Below are positions 26,501 through 38,500 of a stretch of 64,000 bases of DNA, piece by piece; positions within the stretch are counted from its first letter, which is position 1; every line of letters begins with the position of its first letter. The stretch lies in the NCBI RefSeq assembly GCF_965641715.1, contig NZ_OZ282453.1; one strand, given 5' to 3'. Position numbers: made by a program. The DNA comes from Escherichia coli (GTDB lineage: Bacteria; Pseudomonadota; Gammaproteobacteria; Enterobacterales; Enterobacteriaceae).

Positions 26501-29500
26501 GTGTTATTTGTATGATGCTTAAACCGTTAAGAAATTTTCATATATTATTTTTTTTAATGTTGAATTAATGTCTATTAATTTTTTCTTCAGGATAATAGTT
26601 TGTTTTTTAAGCTTGTTATTCATTGATTAAGTAATAAATCAGAAAAATTGTCTTTGTTTTGAGGCTAATGAGTGGTTTTACATAACCGCCTCTATACGCT
26701 GTTGATGAATAGTTCTTATGAATAAAGATATCCAGTTCATACTTTAAGTGAAAATTGATAAAGTGCGATTCGTATTGTCTTTTATTCTAAAGACATCGAG
26801 TGTAGTTAATATTCCTTGTAAAAACAGGGATAAACCGAACTAGTTAAAGTTTTTATTATGTTCCCCGCGTCAGCGGGGATAACCATTCAGGTATGTTCAG
26901 GCCGGGCTGTTTCCCGCCCGGCCTTCCTCACTTACGCATTCGACCAGCTCTGGATCGAATCCGCATTTCCCAATTCCCCATGCATCACTTCATACGATTT
27001 TTTCAGAATCACATCAGTATGTTTGGTTAGGTCTTTGAAAATGCCTTTATTCATCGCGTCGTAGCGTTTGGCATTGCTCTCAATCGGTATAAAGATATCT
27101 TTCACGCGAACCATTTTATCGACAGCCGTTGCGTAATCCGGGTATAGCCCCAGACCTACCGCTGTATTAATCGCTGCCCCCAGACTTGCACAACCGTTAA
27201 TGGCGTTACGTCGTGCCGGAAGGTTGAACACGTCGGCAAAAATCTGCATAAACAGATCGCTGTTCGAACCGCCGCCAGTAATGATTACATGCTTCGCAAA
27301 GTGATTCATTTCATTACACATATTGTCGTAATTGTTCTTCAGCGTCAGCGCCACGCTTTCCAGTATCGAACGATATATCCATGCGTAATCCATGCTGGAA
27401 TCAAAGCCGATCATAATCCCGCGTTTGTACGGTTCCCACGGATTGGTCAGCCAGTCCAGCACCGTCATCAGCCCATTACAGCCAGGTGGCACACTAGAGG
27501 CTTTCTTGTTGAGTAAATCTTCCGGTGAAAGATCCTGCGCCCTGGCATCCTGAATTAACGACTCGCCTAACATGTCGCGCAGCCAGCTCACCGTCCACAT
27601 GCCTTTGCGAATACCGTAACCTTCATACAGCAATGTTTGCGGAATAGAAGACATAATCGGCCAGTACGCCACCGGATCTTTCGGCAGTGCTTTGCCGTTC
27701 ATCATCAATGCGATGTAAGTGCCAAGAGAAATTACCGCAGTTTCATCATCCAGTAATCCGGCCCCCAGAGCTTCTACCGGTTTATCACTGGTGGTACAAA
27801 CAACCGGCAGCCCTGCCGGGAAATGTGTCGCCAGCGCGGCTTGTGGTGTGATCTGTCCAAGAACAGTGCCTGGCATTTGCACATCAAACAGCATATGACG
27901 GGGGATATTAAACTTCTCCATGACTGCGGCATCTTCACTCCATGCCCAGCTCTTATAATCCACCGGCCACTGACCAAAATAGTTGGCGATATTGTCTTTA
28001 AACTCGCCGGTTAAGCGATGCGTCAGATAACCCGAAAAAGAGGTGACATAGGCCACGTCAGGATTAGTGTGTTCGTAGGGACGCGTTACGCGTGCATCCT
28101 GCCAGCTAATCAATGGCGCAGCTGGCGTGCCATCGGCTTTCAATAACGCACGGCAGCAACGGATGGATCCCAGACCAATAACGACAATATCTTCTTTATT
28201 CCCGGCAAACTGACTCATCAAATCGTGACCGGCAAAACATAATGATGCCCATAAATCGTCGTCAGGATGTTCTGCGGTATCGGCATCTGGCGTGTGCATC
28301 GGCTGCAATAAACCTTTGCCTTCGCAAACCACGTTACCTTCCAGATCGTACATCACCACTTTTGTGCTCTGACTTCCGCCATCAATCCCTATGATGTATT
28401 TCTTCGACATGATTTTTCTCCTGTAATTTTCCTGGCTTACTTGCTGCTAGCCATTGCGGGGGCGCTATCAGCAGTACGAATTTTTTGGAACAGCAAAAAG
28501 GTAAAGACAATCACCATGGCAAGCGCCGCCATGCCCATCAGCCACATATTGCGGTAGGCTTCTGCTGCGGGCAGGGTGTCTTGCCAGTGGCCGATAATGG
28601 GGTAAACGAAGACATCCGGCAGGAATCCAATCACCGAGCAAATACCTACCGTGGTGCCCATAATGTAAGACGGTGTTCTCGCTTCGCCAGGGCAGGCCCA
28701 GTACAGCCCGCGTGAGGCGTAACAGGTGAATCCCAGCAGTAAAATCAGGCCAATCCCCATCGCGACCGATTGCGGGTTAGAGTTCGTGACGAGCAGGGCA
28801 GTTAACGCCAGCAGGCCGAGTACGGAAAGGATTTGGATCACGCGGGTAGGGGATTTCACTTTGCTGTAGGTGGTGATTATGCCGCCAAGTGGGCCGCACA
28901 GCGCGCGGAAGATTTTGTTGATCACAATCCCCATGTAGCTCGCCGCCACCAGCGACATGCCGTACATTTCGGTCAGATAGTTGGTGGAGTAACTCAGAAT
29001 GGCGTAGATGGTGAAGACACCAAAAATCACCATGCTGCAATACCAGGTGGTACTGATACGCAAAACGGCCAGGATATCGCTAAGCTGGAATGACTGTTTT
29101 TCTTCGTTATTGGCACTGCGCTGGTTGTTGTTATCGCTAACAAAAAACCAGCACAGAATCCCCAACAAGATGTAAACCACACTATAGATGATAATGACCG
29201 TTTTCAGGCTGGTGCTGTCATCCGGTGCAAAGCGAGAAAAGACCCACATGGTAAACACTGCCAGCGACATTACACCGACGCCGCGCAGCCCTTCCATCCA
29301 GCCCATAATTTTCCCTTGCTCGCTATGATCGCCAAGCAACGAGGCGGCTTTAATCGACACCGACCACAGCATTAAAATCGTTGTTATCGCAAAGGCGACC
29401 TGAATACAGAGCATTACCCACAGCGGTGGATACGTTGCCATTAACAGACCCAGTAATCCGGTAATGATCATCGCGGAAGTAATCATTTTGCGGTGTGAAA

Positions 29501-35500: not shown

Positions 35501-38500
35501 ATCAAACCAAATTCAATTGGTTACGATTATCCCGTCAAAGCAATTTTTTCGCTAACGTCCAGACTCCGGTATTCGTGGTGGAAAGCGCCACGACACCCGC
35601 GTTAATCGCATTACGCGCATCTTCTTCATCGCATACCAGCCCGCCAGCAATCAGCGGTTGGCGGATTTTTTCCGTCACCCAGCCCAGCACTTTGGGCATG
35701 CAGCCTGGCAGGATCTCAATACAATCCGGATTCGATTGCGCAACTTGCTTATCAATGTTGTGAAACGAAATCGAATCAACAATAAACAGGCGATGAATAC
35801 AGAAAAAACCTTCCGCTCTTGCCGCTTTTAGCATCGATGCTTTGGTGCTGATAATGCCGTCCGCCTCGGTCACCAGTTTCAAAAACTGAATCACGACTTC
35901 TTTATTTGACGCGCCTTCCAGCAAATCAACATGAATAAAAGCATATTTCCCGGCGTTCTTAATCTTTTTAACGATATTACTGATGGTGCAGATATTGCCG
36001 TACAACACGGAAATAAACTGGCATTCAGAGTCGATTGCCAGTTGCAGGCTGGCATTATCTTTTACGGCAGCAATCACCGGATTCTGGCGGAGCAGGTGTA
36101 AGAGGGGCATAAATTATCCTTATTATTTATCCAAAGCGGTAGGTGATGCCGAATCCGGAAGGTGGATAGCGCCACTGTTGTAGTGTTGATTCGTCGCACA
36201 GCAAACGGCAGGTGCCGCACTCAAGGCAACCGCGATAATCAACACGCAAGTCGCCTTCCGGCGTGAGCGCAAAAAGACCTGCCGGGCAGGCGTTAATCAA
36301 CCGTTCTGCCGTCTGGCGCTCAACGGAGTCAGCCGGAACAATGTGCGGCGCATCAGCAACGCGCCAGAGATTACGGGCTACAGACATCGCAGACTCCTGA
36401 TAACATCGCCCGCCAGATGCCACAGGCCATGACGACGTAAATGACGCCAGAATAACTGGCGCAGCGGTGGAACAGGTTTATCACCCTGATCCCATAAATC
36501 GCGGGAAATATCCTGCATTAACGCAGGCCACGCCCGATACCAGCCAGGGCGTTGCAAAAGCGCCGGAACATGCTGATAACGTTGTAGAACATCCCACAGC
36601 AGGCTGCGCTCTACGTTGTGATGATAAAGCGGAAACAGATTTTGCGGCTCGCGGTGCTGGCAGGCGCTTATCAGTGTTTGTGCCGCCGCCTGCGCGCCAG
36701 TTAGCGCCGTATCCATGCCGCGCACGGAAATTCCGGTATTGACGCAACTGCGCAACGCATCGCCTACCAGCAGCCAGCCGTTACCGGCGTATTGCACTGG
36801 CATACTGTGCAAGCCACCTTCTGGCACCAGATGCGCACCATACTCCAGTGATTCCGTGTTTTTGATAAGCGGGCGCACTGCCGGATGCGCTTTAAAGCGA
36901 GTCAGCAGCTCGCTTGCCGGAACACGACTTTGCGTAAGGGAAGAGAGCGGGCAAACAATCCCTAACGAGAGCGTTTGTTGATTAGTATAAAGAAATGCGC
37001 CGCCGGGAAAGTCATCACAGATTCCGCCGCTGAACAGCAACGCTGCGCCTTCGTTATTCTCCAGATGAAAACGTTCTTCAATAGCGGATGTTTCCAGCGA
37101 CAGCACTTCTTTGATCCCCAACGCCATCGCTTCGCCAGCAGGACGAGTCACTAATCCGTGACGTTCAGCCAGGACGCTGTTGGCACCTTCTGCCAGCACC
37201 ACATAACGGGCGCGGAGAATATCGTCACCACAAATGACACCACACACCCTGCCGTCTTCTTCATACAGAGCATCCACCGTCGCACCAGGGATGCATTCGA
37301 CACCTTCTTTTTCGGCTTCGGCAACCAGCCACGGATCGAACCGTGCACGTAATACACTCCAGGATTCACCGCCGGGCTGTAAGCTGGAAAACGTCGTTGC
37401 GCCATCGGGCGTTAACAGGGAAAGGCTTTCGTGAGTGATGCGTCGTTCAAGAGGCGCGGTCAGATGAAATTGCGGGAGGAGTTCCGCGAGTGCATGGGTA
37501 TATAACCGCCCGCCGGAAAGATTTTTGCTGCCGGGGATTTCAGCGCGTTCCAGTAACAAAACGGATAAACCCGCTCGCGCGCAGCGTAACGCGCAAGCGG
37601 TGCCTGCAATACCGGCACCAATAATAATAATGTCGCAGTCGTCTTCCATGTCATGCCCCAGATATCCTGAACACAACACCCTAACATAGCGTTACTTAAG
37701 GGAAATTGACCGCCGACACACTCTTATCATTCGCCGCGATAGATACAACCAGCGGTGCAGGTTTCTTTTACCATCACCGCACTTAACAGCGGCACAACGG
37801 GTTTAACCTGATCCCAAATCCATTTTGCTAAAACTTCGCTGGTTGGGTTTTCCAGACCTGGAATATCATTGAGATAATGGTGATCGAGGCGCTCATAAGT
37901 TGGCTTAAACGCCGCTTTTAGTTCAGCGAAATCGATAATCCAGCCCGTATGCGGATCGACTTCCCCGGTAATTTCCAGTCGCACCATAAAGGAATGCCCG
38001 TGCAGGCGACCACATTTATGCCCTTCCGGGACGTGTGGTAAGCGGTGAGCGGCTTCGAAGGTGAAATCTTTAAATAACGTGGTGGACATCATAATTTCTC
38101 TACAGGACGATAAAACCGCCGTAGAGTACCGGAAAGGCTGTTTTTTCGCATTATCTAAAACGACTTTGTTGCGCAAAATCGCTGATTTATCTTAATGATT
38201 GGCTAAATTCATTTGTTTTTCATTAGGTTGGTTAATCTATTTTGTTGTTAAAGACTATTGCTAAAACAGGTTAGTCGATTTGGTTATTAGTTATCGCTAT
38301 CCCGTCTTTAATCCACACCGTTCACCCCGTTAACCTTACCTTCTCTTCTGTTTTATGGGCGCTGACAGGGCGCAGAAACAGCTTTGCTTACTGGAACATA
38401 ACGACGCATGACGACACAGGTCCCACCTTCCGCGTTGCTTCCGTTGAACCCGGAGCAACTGGCACGCCTTCAGGCGGCCACGACCGATTTAACTCCCACC

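Follow-up and report, generated by a model that had tools for sequence, protein, structure and literature searches.

A 64-kb stretch of Escherichia coli DNA (RefSeq assembly GCF_965641715.1, contig NZ_OZ282453.1; hereafter the window, to whose positions all coordinates refer) contains the ygc island, an already known set of uncharacterised genes. Our analysis favours, at a probability of roughly 0.55, the reading that the ygc genes form a regulon, three-layered in composition and present in nearly all E. coli, which serves the catabolism of a small hydroxylated compound and is controlled both by CRP and by antitermination through YgcP. The evidence carrying this reading is a twin arrangement, described here as new, in which a predicted CRP promoter and a leader RNA whose motif is absent from Rfam open each of two divergent operons, together with the co-occurrence of that leader with ygcP in other bacterial lineages and the conservation of a core of enzymes.

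Ten intact open reading frames (ORFs) run across 26932-37646: ygcE, yqcE, ygcW, ygcU, ygcS, ygcR, ygcQ, ygcP, ygcO and ygcN. RefSeq gives the same ten names in the nearest E. coli genome, with which the window shares 98.7% identity over 11.2 kb. All ten stand, as complete ORFs, where the first-pass annotation of the window had placed them and on the strands it gave. Profile matches agree with the families it named, namely an FGGY kinase, two major facilitator superfamily (MFS) transporters, a short-chain dehydrogenase/reductase (SDR), an oxidase fold linked to flavin adenine dinucleotide (FAD), an electron transfer flavoprotein (ETF), and GlpP-like, FixX-like and FixC-like proteins. Its division of the genes into two divergent units does not hold, as yqcE-ygcE run leftward, ygcWUSRQ rightward and ygcN-O-P leftward, and its range, ending at 38092, took in the unlisted gene queD: the cluster stops at 37646, and the last 366 bases of that range are unrelated to it. 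The features are as follows, with protein lengths in amino acids (aa).

26932-28410, minus strand: ygcE, FGGY-family kinase, 492 aa; lies second in the yqcE-ygcE operon
28437-29714, minus strand: yqcE, MFS transporter, 425 aa
29739-29803, minus strand: predicted yqcE leader RNA, hairpin and U8 tract; the tract begins 32 nt before the yqcE ATG
29837-29852, strand not applicable: CRP-type site 2, TGTGAGAGTAATCACG, one mismatch; read from the sequence
29893-29908, strand not applicable: CRP site 1, perfect palindrome TGTGATTACGATCACA
29942-30008, plus strand: predicted ygcW leader RNA, antiterminator element overlapping a terminator, U9; the tract begins 33 nt before the ATG
30033-30818, plus strand: ygcW, KduD / gluconate-5-dehydrogenase-like SDR, 261 aa
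30888-32342, plus strand: ygcU, alkyl-DHAP-synthase-like flavoenzyme (DHAP, dihydroxyacetone phosphate), 484 aa
32364-33773, plus strand: ygcS, MFS transporter of sugar-porter / aromatic-acid symporter type, 469 aa as annotated
33751-34530, plus strand: ygcR, divergent ETF beta-like subunit, 259 aa
34527-35387, plus strand: ygcQ, divergent ETF alpha-like subunit, 286 aa
35535-36110, minus strand: ygcP, GlpP-family (G3P_antiterm) protein, 191 aa
36127-36387, minus strand: ygcO, FixX-like ferredoxin, 86 aa
36378-37646, minus strand: ygcN, FixC-like flavoprotein, 422 aa, putative ETF:quinone oxidoreductase
37727-38089, minus strand: queD, 6-carboxytetrahydropterin synthase, a queuosine gene; not part of the cluster

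Twin leader RNAs and CRP sites in the ygcW/yqcE spacer

The spacer between ygcW and yqcE is 318 bp long and holds the sole perfect TGTGA-N6-TCACA in the window (29893-29908). This site, CRP site 1, is a target of CRP in chromatin immunoprecipitation from enterotoxigenic E. coli (PMC4287617) and is bound in vitro with an estimated dissociation constant of 1.7 nM (PMC12871828), which agrees with the catabolic role first proposed for the island. Its centre lies 44.5 bp upstream of the point where the ygcW leader element begins, and that of CRP-type site 2 lies 43.5 bp upstream of the corresponding point in the yqcE leader. Both CRP-type sites are present in 53 of 54 enterobacterial spacers, each 43.5-45.5 bp from the first conserved base of its own leader, whereas the distance from one site to the other ranges from 36 to 172 bp. 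This geometry fits two class II CRP promoters, with predicted transcription starts 2-4 nt before the conserved element and ~41.5 bp downstream of the CRP site.

Each predicted leader ends in a hairpin and U tract just before the start codon, on the strand correct for its gene. For ygcW (96-nt leader fold -41.7 kcal/mol, z = -6.6), the terminator scan found an AGTTACC-AGAGATAAT-GAGAAAGGTAACT antiterminator overlapping a perfect 19-bp terminator stem at 29960-30001 with a U9 tract; for yqcE, RNA folding gave a conserved ATTACT-AGAGA-N4-GAGAAAAGTAAT element, a hairpin at ~29786-29747 and U8. Both terminator hairpins open with GAGAAARGTAA and close with TTACYTTTCT, and the same layout was seen in 54/54 enterobacterial loci examined, where the tops of the stems vary freely and their bases are conserved. 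In the upstream RTTACY-AGAGA-N3-5 element, RTTACY pairs with the RGTAAY of the terminator 5' arm to give an alternative hairpin of 6-7 bp with a purine-rich loop (AGAGA...GAGAAA). Taken alone this antiterminator is weak (-6.7 and -1.4 kcal/mol) compared with the ygcW terminator (~-31 kcal/mol).

Pair counts over 57 leaders bear on both structures. The lower stem of the terminator is 97.9% paired, with AU/GC exchange in 13 sequences, and the antiterminator is 91.5% paired, with GC/AU exchange in 14 and UA/CG exchange in 13, as against 15-54% in slid registers. At one leader column, A or G covaries with both alternative partners, as would be expected of a switch; RNAalifold predicts the terminator independently. 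The covariance model scores the ygcW leader at 78.1 bits and the yqcE leader, which is not annotated in RefSeq and is at least 99% identical in 5031 E. coli genomes, at 71.7 bits. Against Rfam 15 neither leader was matched at E<=1, the only hits being weak REP-like (repetitive extragenic palindromic) and Chlorobi-1 matches elsewhere in the region. No third leader-like element was found upstream of ygcN by RNA folding or elsewhere in the window with the covariance model. BLAST with a 34-nt leader fragment against all E. coli genomes found one place in each genome; the search missed the sister leader and so is uninformative on further regulon members.

Variant spacers were seen in three loci. 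In Limnobaculum eriocheiris (L035, 3057-3186) the yqcE/ygcW spacer is just 130 nt long, has no CRP-type site and holds one palindromic hairpin between an A run and a T run, matched by the leader model on both strands; it appears to be either a shared bidirectional leader terminator or the product of a spacer deletion. Klebsiella spallanzanii (L006) and Citrobacter youngae (L011) carry ~130 bp inserted between the yqcE leader and the start codon, an insert that we take to resemble an ERIC-type (enterobacterial repetitive intergenic consensus) repeat.

The leader accompanies ygcP beyond the enterobacteria

Residues 12-184 of YgcP match positions 1-173 of the 173 in the PF04309 (G3P_antiterm) model at E = 1.6e-62, and its solved relatives are 3kts and 1vkf, with the Listeria GlpP-like 3kts at 1.2e-27 and 100 bits. 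The GlpP-like regulator of the first-pass annotation is therefore confirmed as to family, and it is made concrete by the two conserved leaders and two CRP sites. A covariance model built from enterobacterial leaders only gave significant matches in every non-enterobacterial ygcP locus searched, placed as follows.

Syntrophomonadaceae (L053): leader before ygcW
Firmicute (L065): leader before ygcU and before a divergent BCCT transporter
Photobacterium (L069): leader before the SDR and before an MFS-FGGY pair
Sporomusa (L070): leader before the SDR and before a BCCT transporter
Salsuginibacillus (L060) and Alkalicoccus (L068): leader before an OpuC-type ABC operon
Enterococcus canis (L067): leader before gldA and before ygcE
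Metagenomic locus L071: leader before ygcW
Metagenomic locus L072: leader before an OpuC-type operon
Metagenomic locus L073: leader before an OpuC-type operon and before ygcW
Metagenomic locus L074: leader just downstream of ygcP, where the contig ends

The metagenome motif scan contributed the last four loci only, too few for statistics. Across 15 outside leaders that were not used to build the model, in-register pairing of the antiterminator reaches 90%, against 21-59% when slid. Four Bacillaceae loci that keep ygcW-ygcU-ygcE and have no ygcP gave nothing above 15.4 bits with filters off, and the ygcP-less loci L052 and L064 gave no leader match at E<=1. Among the loci searched, the predicted leader thus occurs only where ygcP is present. 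The 5' untranslated region (UTR) of Bacillus subtilis glpD, an established GlpP target (PMC9604022 Table S4), has GGTCC-UGAGAUGAGGAGA-GACC overlapping a terminator, the same plan as in the ygc leaders. Because the leader travels with ygcP and shares its plan with the glpD 5' UTR, we infer that YgcP acts on both leaders as their antiterminator, with the phosphorylated YgcE product as its ligand; the pattern is what was observed, and binding and ligand are what we infer from it.

A core found in several lineages and a faster-evolving redox module

The cluster is at least 80% covered at one place in at least 5060 of 5426 complete E. coli genomes; among the remainder are some in which it is split by an insertion sequence (IS) element and a few in which it is lost. 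All ten genes are under purifying selection: the ratio of non-synonymous to synonymous substitution rates (dN/dS) against Citrobacter is 0.01-0.19 for every gene, which rules out that they are pseudogenes. The ratio is lowest in the core (ygcP 0.010, ygcW 0.017, ygcE 0.028, ygcU 0.029), against 0.105-0.186 for the redox genes ygcR (0.105), ygcQ, ygcO and ygcN. Identities to the Pluralibacter proteins divide in the same way, with 93% for YgcW, 92% for YgcU, 89% for YgcP and 87% for YqcE, against 46% for YgcR, 45% for YgcQ, 47% for YgcO and 60% for YgcN. Where present, the redox genes evolve 3-10 times faster than the core. The G+C content is also mosaic, at 42-44% around the spacer and ygcW (29500-30500) and 55-57% over ygcS-ygcQ (33000-35500) and ygcN, a contrast that fits a mosaic origin of core and redox module.

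Loci were mapped by tblastn from a scan for YgcU with one genome per species, yielding 67 loci from genomes and metagenome-assembled genomes (MAGs), to which those of Photobacterium and Sporomusa were added. The full set of ten genes lies beside queD in Escherichia, Citrobacter, Klebsiella spallanzanii, Raoultella, Pluralibacter, Cedecea, Buttiauxella and others, and the cluster occupies a different chromosomal position in Serratia, Rahnella and Budviciaceae. Erwinia, Pantoea, Izhakiella, Ewingella and some Serratia have a version lacking ygcR, ygcQ, ygcN and ygcO. Outside Enterobacterales, ygcW-ygcU-ygcE occurs in Bacillaceae, Syntrophomonadaceae, Spirochaeta, an unclassified Firmicute, Photobacterium (Vibrionaceae) and Sporomusa (Negativicutes); a short Desulfobacterales contig shows only ygcW-ygcU, and Enterococcus canis keeps ygcE-ygcU with ygcW replaced by a GldA-type glycerol dehydrogenase (444 bits against a cut-off of 336). 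The linkage of ygcE to ygcU holds in nearly every lineage sampled. ETF genes are missing from eight enterobacterial loci and from all Bacillaceae and Enterococcus loci, and ygcU is directly followed by etfB-etfA in Syntrophomonadaceae, Desulfobacterales, Photobacterium and Sporomusa. An RpiR/SIS regulator stands beside the cluster in seven loci, six of which have no ygcP.

These patterns point to a core of ygcW, ygcU and ygcE, usually with ygcP, shared by several bacterial lineages and reported here as new, with the ETF and FixCX-like genes as a predicted accessory, faster-evolving module. A dedicated ETF had been predicted to carry the electrons; its genes are absent from several lineages that keep ygcW-ygcU-ygcE and evolve faster where present, and the ETF is not the centre of the system. 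Two further loci, labelled as a Planctomycetota MAG (L003) and as Chryseobacterium sp. (L026), carry ygcU genes 100% and 88% identical to that of the window; L026 also has the rest of the enterobacterial cluster, and on L003 only ygcU was mapped. They are most likely contamination or mis-binning.

YgcU carries a predicted alkyl-DHAP-synthase-type active site

All ten proteins score below the curated cut-offs of the NCBIfam equivalog models. YgcW scores 350.9 bits against a cut-off of 369 (NF005390) and 277.7 against 338.85 (TIGR01832) with the KduD models, and is predicted to be a close paralogue of KduD rather than KduD itself; its nearest solved relatives are a deposited 2-deoxy-D-gluconate 3-dehydrogenase (KduD-type; 1.9e-58) and then gluconate 5-dehydrogenase, and it is 61-97% identical across the lineages sampled. 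The top models for YgcE are XylB (140 bits against 380) and LsrK, the autoinducer-2 kinase (138 bits against 528), so that no assigned specificity is reached; LsrK is also its nearest solved relative (1.9e-29).

YgcU has the Pfam architecture FAD_binding_4 plus FAD-oxidase_C, and its nearest solved relative is alkyl-DHAP synthase (ADPS) at 2.1e-40, well ahead of glycolate oxidase and LctD. In the HMMER alignment to 4bby, R262 falls on R419, the Tyr of NMYF on Y578 and H438-H440 on H615-617 (aligned motifs ARLYD/IRLMD, NMYF/CIYF and HHHGIGK/HHHGVGK), residues whose catalytic roles and numbering we take from the literature on the mammalian enzyme. The Arg, Tyr and HHH are invariant in nine orthologues from different lineages. 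The N-terminal extension of eukaryotic ADPS was not found in YgcU, whose residue 60 aligns with ADPS residue 215 (484 versus 658 aa). Where GlcD/LctD-type enzymes have GEHG and GH..(D)GN.H, with the Glu-His and GH..(D)GN.H motifs presumably forming a metal site, YgcU has HHHG and GGHSSHSY. We conclude, as a new assignment, that YgcU probably has an ADPS-type active site instead of the GlcD-type metal site; the FAD-linked oxidase of the first-pass annotation is not a generic GlcD-type oxidase, having the Arg, Tyr and HHH of ADPS and His-His in place of the GlcD/LctD Glu-His. We do not class it as an ADPS, because the adjacent ETF genes suggest net electron transfer. The names of 120 YgcU homologues are automatic labels, either 'FAD-binding oxidoreductase' or 'alkyldihydroxyacetonephosphate synthase'.

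The clusters of anaerobes and Vibrionaceae (L069 13187-16591, L070 13241-14782, L065 13233-16800) hold a further FAD oxidase, which is of GlcD/LctD type and has SEHG or GEHG plus GH...N..H. It has its own ETF pair in L069 and L065, and the L069 alpha subunit shows a faint precomputed match to a ferredoxin domain. Its presence suggests a second flavin-dependent oxidation, perhaps of the pathway product. Two PlsC-like genes adjoin the Syntrophomonadaceae locus, and an ether-lipid biosynthesis cluster was considered and rejected; the transporters, CRP control and kinase argue for catabolism.

The redox proteins are divergent throughout. YgcR scores 45 bits with the NCBIfam ETF beta model and YgcQ 76 bits with ETF alpha, both far below the equivalog cut-offs, and YgcQ aligns to human ETF alpha at 8e-23. 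In YgcQ and its enterobacterial orthologues SGAAAL, SGASAF or SGAPAF stands in place of SGAIQH, with the preceding Arg motif kept, and SGSIQH is retained in the ETF partner at the Spirochaeta locus; flavin binding or tuning may be different in the E. coli ETF. YgcN (PRK10015 377 bits, FixC 362 bits) and YgcO (FixX 84 bits) likewise fall below every cut-off and, encoded together with a 10-nt overlap, are predicted to be FixCX paralogues and not FixCX.

Transporters and clues to the substrate

Transport differs between lineages. BCCT and OpuC-type transporters stand under the same leader outside the enterobacteria, a finding that is new here, and the enterobacteria use MFS carriers. YqcE is weakly similar to anion-type MFS proteins (D-galactonate and phosphoglycerate transporter models) and had no solved relative at E<=0.01; an MFS protein 26-27% identical to it follows ygcE in two Bacillaceae loci, and ygcS was seen with the cluster in Enterobacterales alone. 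The annotated ygcS ORF has a 5' extension ahead of an in-frame ATG (32436), and within this extension, after the ygcU stop codon, lies a G+C-rich hairpin of 9 bp (CGGCTTCTC AGGC GAGAAGCCG; 32384-32405, plus strand) that may be an intercistronic processing or stability element.

The OpuC-type transporter was considered as a chance neighbour and this was rejected, as the leader precedes an OpuC-type operon in four loci. Its binding protein is closest to Archaeoglobus fulgidus ProX and to OpuCC and has retained three of four cage tyrosines together with the Lys and the Arg that, in binding proteins of this type, we take to hold the anionic group. The kept residues suggest a trimethylammonium zwitterion, and the BCCT and OpuC-type transporters under the shared leader hint at an onium-type substrate. 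Further clues come from the regulator family, which senses a small phosphate ester, from the replacement of the SDR by a glycerol dehydrogenase, and from YgcU, whose putative active site is that of an enzyme acting on C1 of a substituted DHAP. Together these would describe a hydroxylated zwitterion, conceivably glycerol with an onium head group, although to that last and specific idea we give little weight. For the enterobacterial version, with its MFS carriers, a conventional polyol or sugar acid is possible, as originally proposed; the transporters elsewhere point to a zwitterionic or onium compound in those lineages.

Flanking features

The island lies, as had been claimed, between two CRISPR (clustered regularly interspaced short palindromic repeat) arrays at 25471-26171 and 52139-52297, both of which carry the type I-E repeat GAGTTCCCCGCGCCAGCGGGGATAAACCG. 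After queD come cysJIH in the window (ORFs from 38408), with cas3 after cysH in the nearest E. coli genome; the other neighbours are housekeeping genes. The genes ygcN-O-P lie downstream of queD on the same strand, across an 80-nt gap with no significant structure (fold z = 0.2), and may be co-transcribed with it; the adjacency is kept in the group from Escherichia to Cedecea, whereas Serratia and Rahnella do not have it. A palindromic element at 35435-35508, where ygcQ and ygcP converge, has the look of a REP-type sequence and matches the Rfam family naRNA4 on both strands at 27.6 and 24.9 bits, below the gathering score of 59.5.

A model for the ygc regulon and its alternatives

In the regulon we propose, the core layer found across lineages would consist of YgcW as an NAD(P)-dependent SDR, the FGGY kinase YgcE, YgcU and usually the antiterminator YgcP. 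A second layer would be made up of lineage-specific transporters (YqcE and YgcS in enterobacteria, BCCT or OpuC-type ABC transporters elsewhere), and a third would be an accessory electron outlet, the YgcR/YgcQ ETF with the FixCX-like ETF:quinone oxidoreductase YgcN/YgcO. Each divergent operon, yqcE-ygcE and ygcWUSRQ, would transcribe a leader of ~65 nt that by default forms the strong intrinsic terminator, one strand of which is shared with the weaker upstream hairpin; YgcP loaded with the phosphorylated intermediate made by YgcE would bind and stabilise this antiterminator, allowing RNA polymerase to read through. Expression would then need both cAMP-CRP and substrate. As to chemistry, a secondary alcohol of the imported compound would be oxidised by YgcW and the neighbouring primary alcohol phosphorylated by YgcE, yielding a DHAP-like hydroxyketone phosphate on which YgcU would act, through its flavin, at the carbon adjoining the keto group. 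In lineages that have the ETF, electrons would pass from YgcU through YgcRQ and YgcNO to quinone.

Several observations weigh against this proposal. The compensatory changes in the leaders stem from few independent events, many of them separating the two paralogous leaders or a few clades, and shuffle statistics on leader covariation overstate its significance. The transcription starts are read from spacing only, the tie between YgcP and the leaders is a pattern in sequence with a deduced ligand, and in what order the SDR, the kinase and the flavoenzyme act is a guess. Since YgcQ lacks the Gln-His of SGAIQH, the E. coli ETF may not be a classical one; moreover, ADPS chemistry is redox-neutral and a poor fit with a partner ETF, yet in anaerobes the ETF is tightly coupled to ygcU. 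We know of no compound for growth on which E. coli needs the ygc genes. The spacer is also flagged as an H-NS site in a table of RpoD genomic SELEX (systematic evolution of ligands by exponential enrichment; PMC3946193), and for this reason the cluster may be largely silent in the laboratory.

Among the alternatives, an ordinary polyol or sugar acid, oxidised by YgcU as a GlcD/LctD-type dehydrogenase with the dedicated ETF as obligatory partner, would account for the FAD_binding_4/FAD-oxidase_C fold that YgcU shares with GlcD and LctD, for etfB-etfA directly after ygcU in four lineages (Syntrophomonadaceae, Desulfobacterales, Photobacterium and Sporomusa), for the closeness of YgcW to KduD and gluconate 5-dehydrogenase and for the weak likeness of YqcE to galactonate-type carriers. 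We nevertheless judge it unlikely: YgcU has His-His for Glu-His and is adjoined in anaerobes by a true GlcD-type paralogue, the ETF genes are dispensable in many lineages, neither the BCCT nor the OpuC-type importers that share the leader are carriers of sugars or polyols, and no enzyme reaches an equivalog cut-off. Rather improbable is a salvage of head groups from glycerol bearing a substituent X, such as glycerophosphocholine or a glyceryl ether from deacylated betaine lipids, in which YgcE would phosphorylate the free primary hydroxyl, YgcW would oxidise C2 to give X-substituted DHAP, and YgcU, as a 'reverse ADPS', would release X (phosphocholine or an ether-linked betaine) by covalent flavin catalysis and leave DHAP, with YgcP sensing X-glycerol-phosphate as an analogue of glycerol-3-phosphate. 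The invariant ADPS residues of YgcU speak for such a scheme, as do the glycerol-3-phosphate-sensing family of YgcP, the GldA-type enzyme, above its NCBIfam cut-off, in the place of the SDR in Enterococcus canis, the leader-controlled BCCT/OpuC-type transporters elsewhere with binding-protein residues that suggest a trimethylammonium zwitterion, and, from general knowledge, the way the core trio mirrors the kinase, the SDR-type alkyl-DHAP reductase and the ADPS of ether-lipid metabolism. It is, however, wholly inferential and leaves the ETF unexplained; glycerophosphodiesters are already hydrolysed in E. coli by GlpQ and UgpQ, YgcE is nearer to xylulokinase and LsrK than to glycerol kinase, and the enterobacterial clusters have MFS and not BCCT/Opu carriers. 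If true, it would make the ygc regulon a previously unrecognised route for recovering deacylated membrane-lipid head groups.

A reading in which the leader hairpins act without YgcP, be it as ordinary structural elements, as terminators or as a small riboswitch, and in which YgcP has another role, is very unlikely. Strong hairpins with U tracts are common and ygcP itself has no such leader in E. coli, but these hairpins lie between promoter and start codon in both directions and so are not gene ends; their loop and lower stem have kept their sequence between E. coli and the Firmicutes, the stem top being free to vary, they are present in all ygcP loci and absent from the ygcP-less ygcW-ygcU-ygcE loci searched, a hairpin of 7 bp and a 15-nt loop falls short of the size of a typical metabolite aptamer, and the layout agrees with a known GlpP target. 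To the idea that the cluster is a silent evolutionary remnant, functionless in present-day E. coli, we give almost no credence: decades without a phenotype or substrate, the H-NS flag and the IS-split or lost copies could be read that way, but all ten genes are under strong purifying selection, conservation extends to both leaders and both CRP sites (the yqcE leader in the 5031 genomes noted above), YgcR protein has been detected and YgcE protein is reported to rise under inhibitor stress.

Relation to known systems and earlier reports

The description that suits the ygc cluster best is that of a variant among catabolic operons under the control of GlpP-type antitermination. As in the B. subtilis glp regulon (GlpP with the glpD, glpFK and glpTQ leaders), a PF04309 protein stands beside an FGGY kinase, a transporter and a flavin enzyme; a promoter, a short purine-rich element and an intrinsic 5'-UTR terminator open the target operons, and an upstream strand can pair with the terminator 5' arm. 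It differs in its Gram-negative host and in joining the leaders to CRP sites in class II position. YgcE is not a glycerol kinase, YgcU is ADPS-like and not GlpD, an SDR and sometimes an ETF chain are added, and the ligand of YgcP is probably not plain glycerol-3-phosphate. With ADPS (also AGPS) of eukaryotic ether-lipid synthesis, YgcU shares alignable FAD and cap domains and the kept Arg419, Tyr578 and His615-617; unlike it, YgcU lacks ~150-200 N-terminal residues and belongs to a CRP-controlled catabolic cluster with a kinase and transporters, in which ETF genes, often right after ygcU, imply a net electron transfer that ADPS does not perform.

LctBCD and the chain from D-2-hydroxyglutarate dehydrogenase through ETF to ETF-QO (ETF:quinone oxidoreductase) resemble the cluster in setting a FAD-oxidase-fold gene beside ETF beta/alpha with a membrane-linked acceptor, and the ygc clusters of anaerobes hold a true LctD/GlcD-type paralogue with its own ETF; YgcU differs by its His-His for Glu-His and the E. 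coli YgcQ by the missing Gln-His of SGAIQH. E. coli fixABCX, which goes with the cai carnitine operon, and ydiQRST are paralogous sets of ETF beta/alpha, FixC-like and FixX-like proteins, and a link to betaine-type (BCCT) transport is met again among the ygc-like clusters from other lineages. The four Ygc proteins fall below the Fix cut-offs, however, their partner enzyme is no acyl-CoA dehydrogenase and the ygc module is optional. In the SDR plus FGGY kinase operons for polyols (Klebsiella ribitol/arabitol, erythritol), a polyol is oxidised to a ketose and then phosphorylated; YgcW and YgcE are of the right families for this, but ygc adds an ADPS-like flavoenzyme, betaine-type transporters in other lineages and an RNA-level regulator instead of a DNA-binding repressor.

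As first stated, no assigned substrate is known for the cluster: full-text searches of the searchable library on its gene names, its protein families and candidate substrates found none. YgcR has been seen on two-dimensional gels, and a ygcR deletion alters death after DNA damage (PMC2646832). Over-expression of YgcS raised production of nicotinamide mononucleotide from nicotinamide (PMC8601175), an over-expression effect only. In enterohaemorrhagic E. coli, ygcU was tested as a D-serine deaminase candidate with a negative result, and its deletion left D-serine responses unaffected. Two literature matches were set aside: the 'YgcO' of a review on the nitrogen phosphotransferase system (PTS-Ntr) is a misprint for YcgO, and an Acetobacterium match is an ordinary glp operon.

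Significance

The ten ygc genes are among the best-conserved genes of unknown function in the most studied bacterium, and the leader RNAs give a handle on their substrate, as a terminator-dependent reporter should respond only to the true inducer and become constitutive when the terminator is removed. If YgcP acts as proposed, the leaders would be a new cis-regulatory RNA motif of Enterobacterales, Vibrionaceae, Negativicutes and Bacillaceae, and the system would be, to our knowledge, the first GlpP-type antitermination described in a proteobacterium. The putative ADPS-type active site in a catabolic, ETF-coupled setting suggests a flavin chemistry so far undescribed in bacteria, and the transporter swaps suggest that gut and marine bacteria use the ygc route for an abundant zwitterionic compound.

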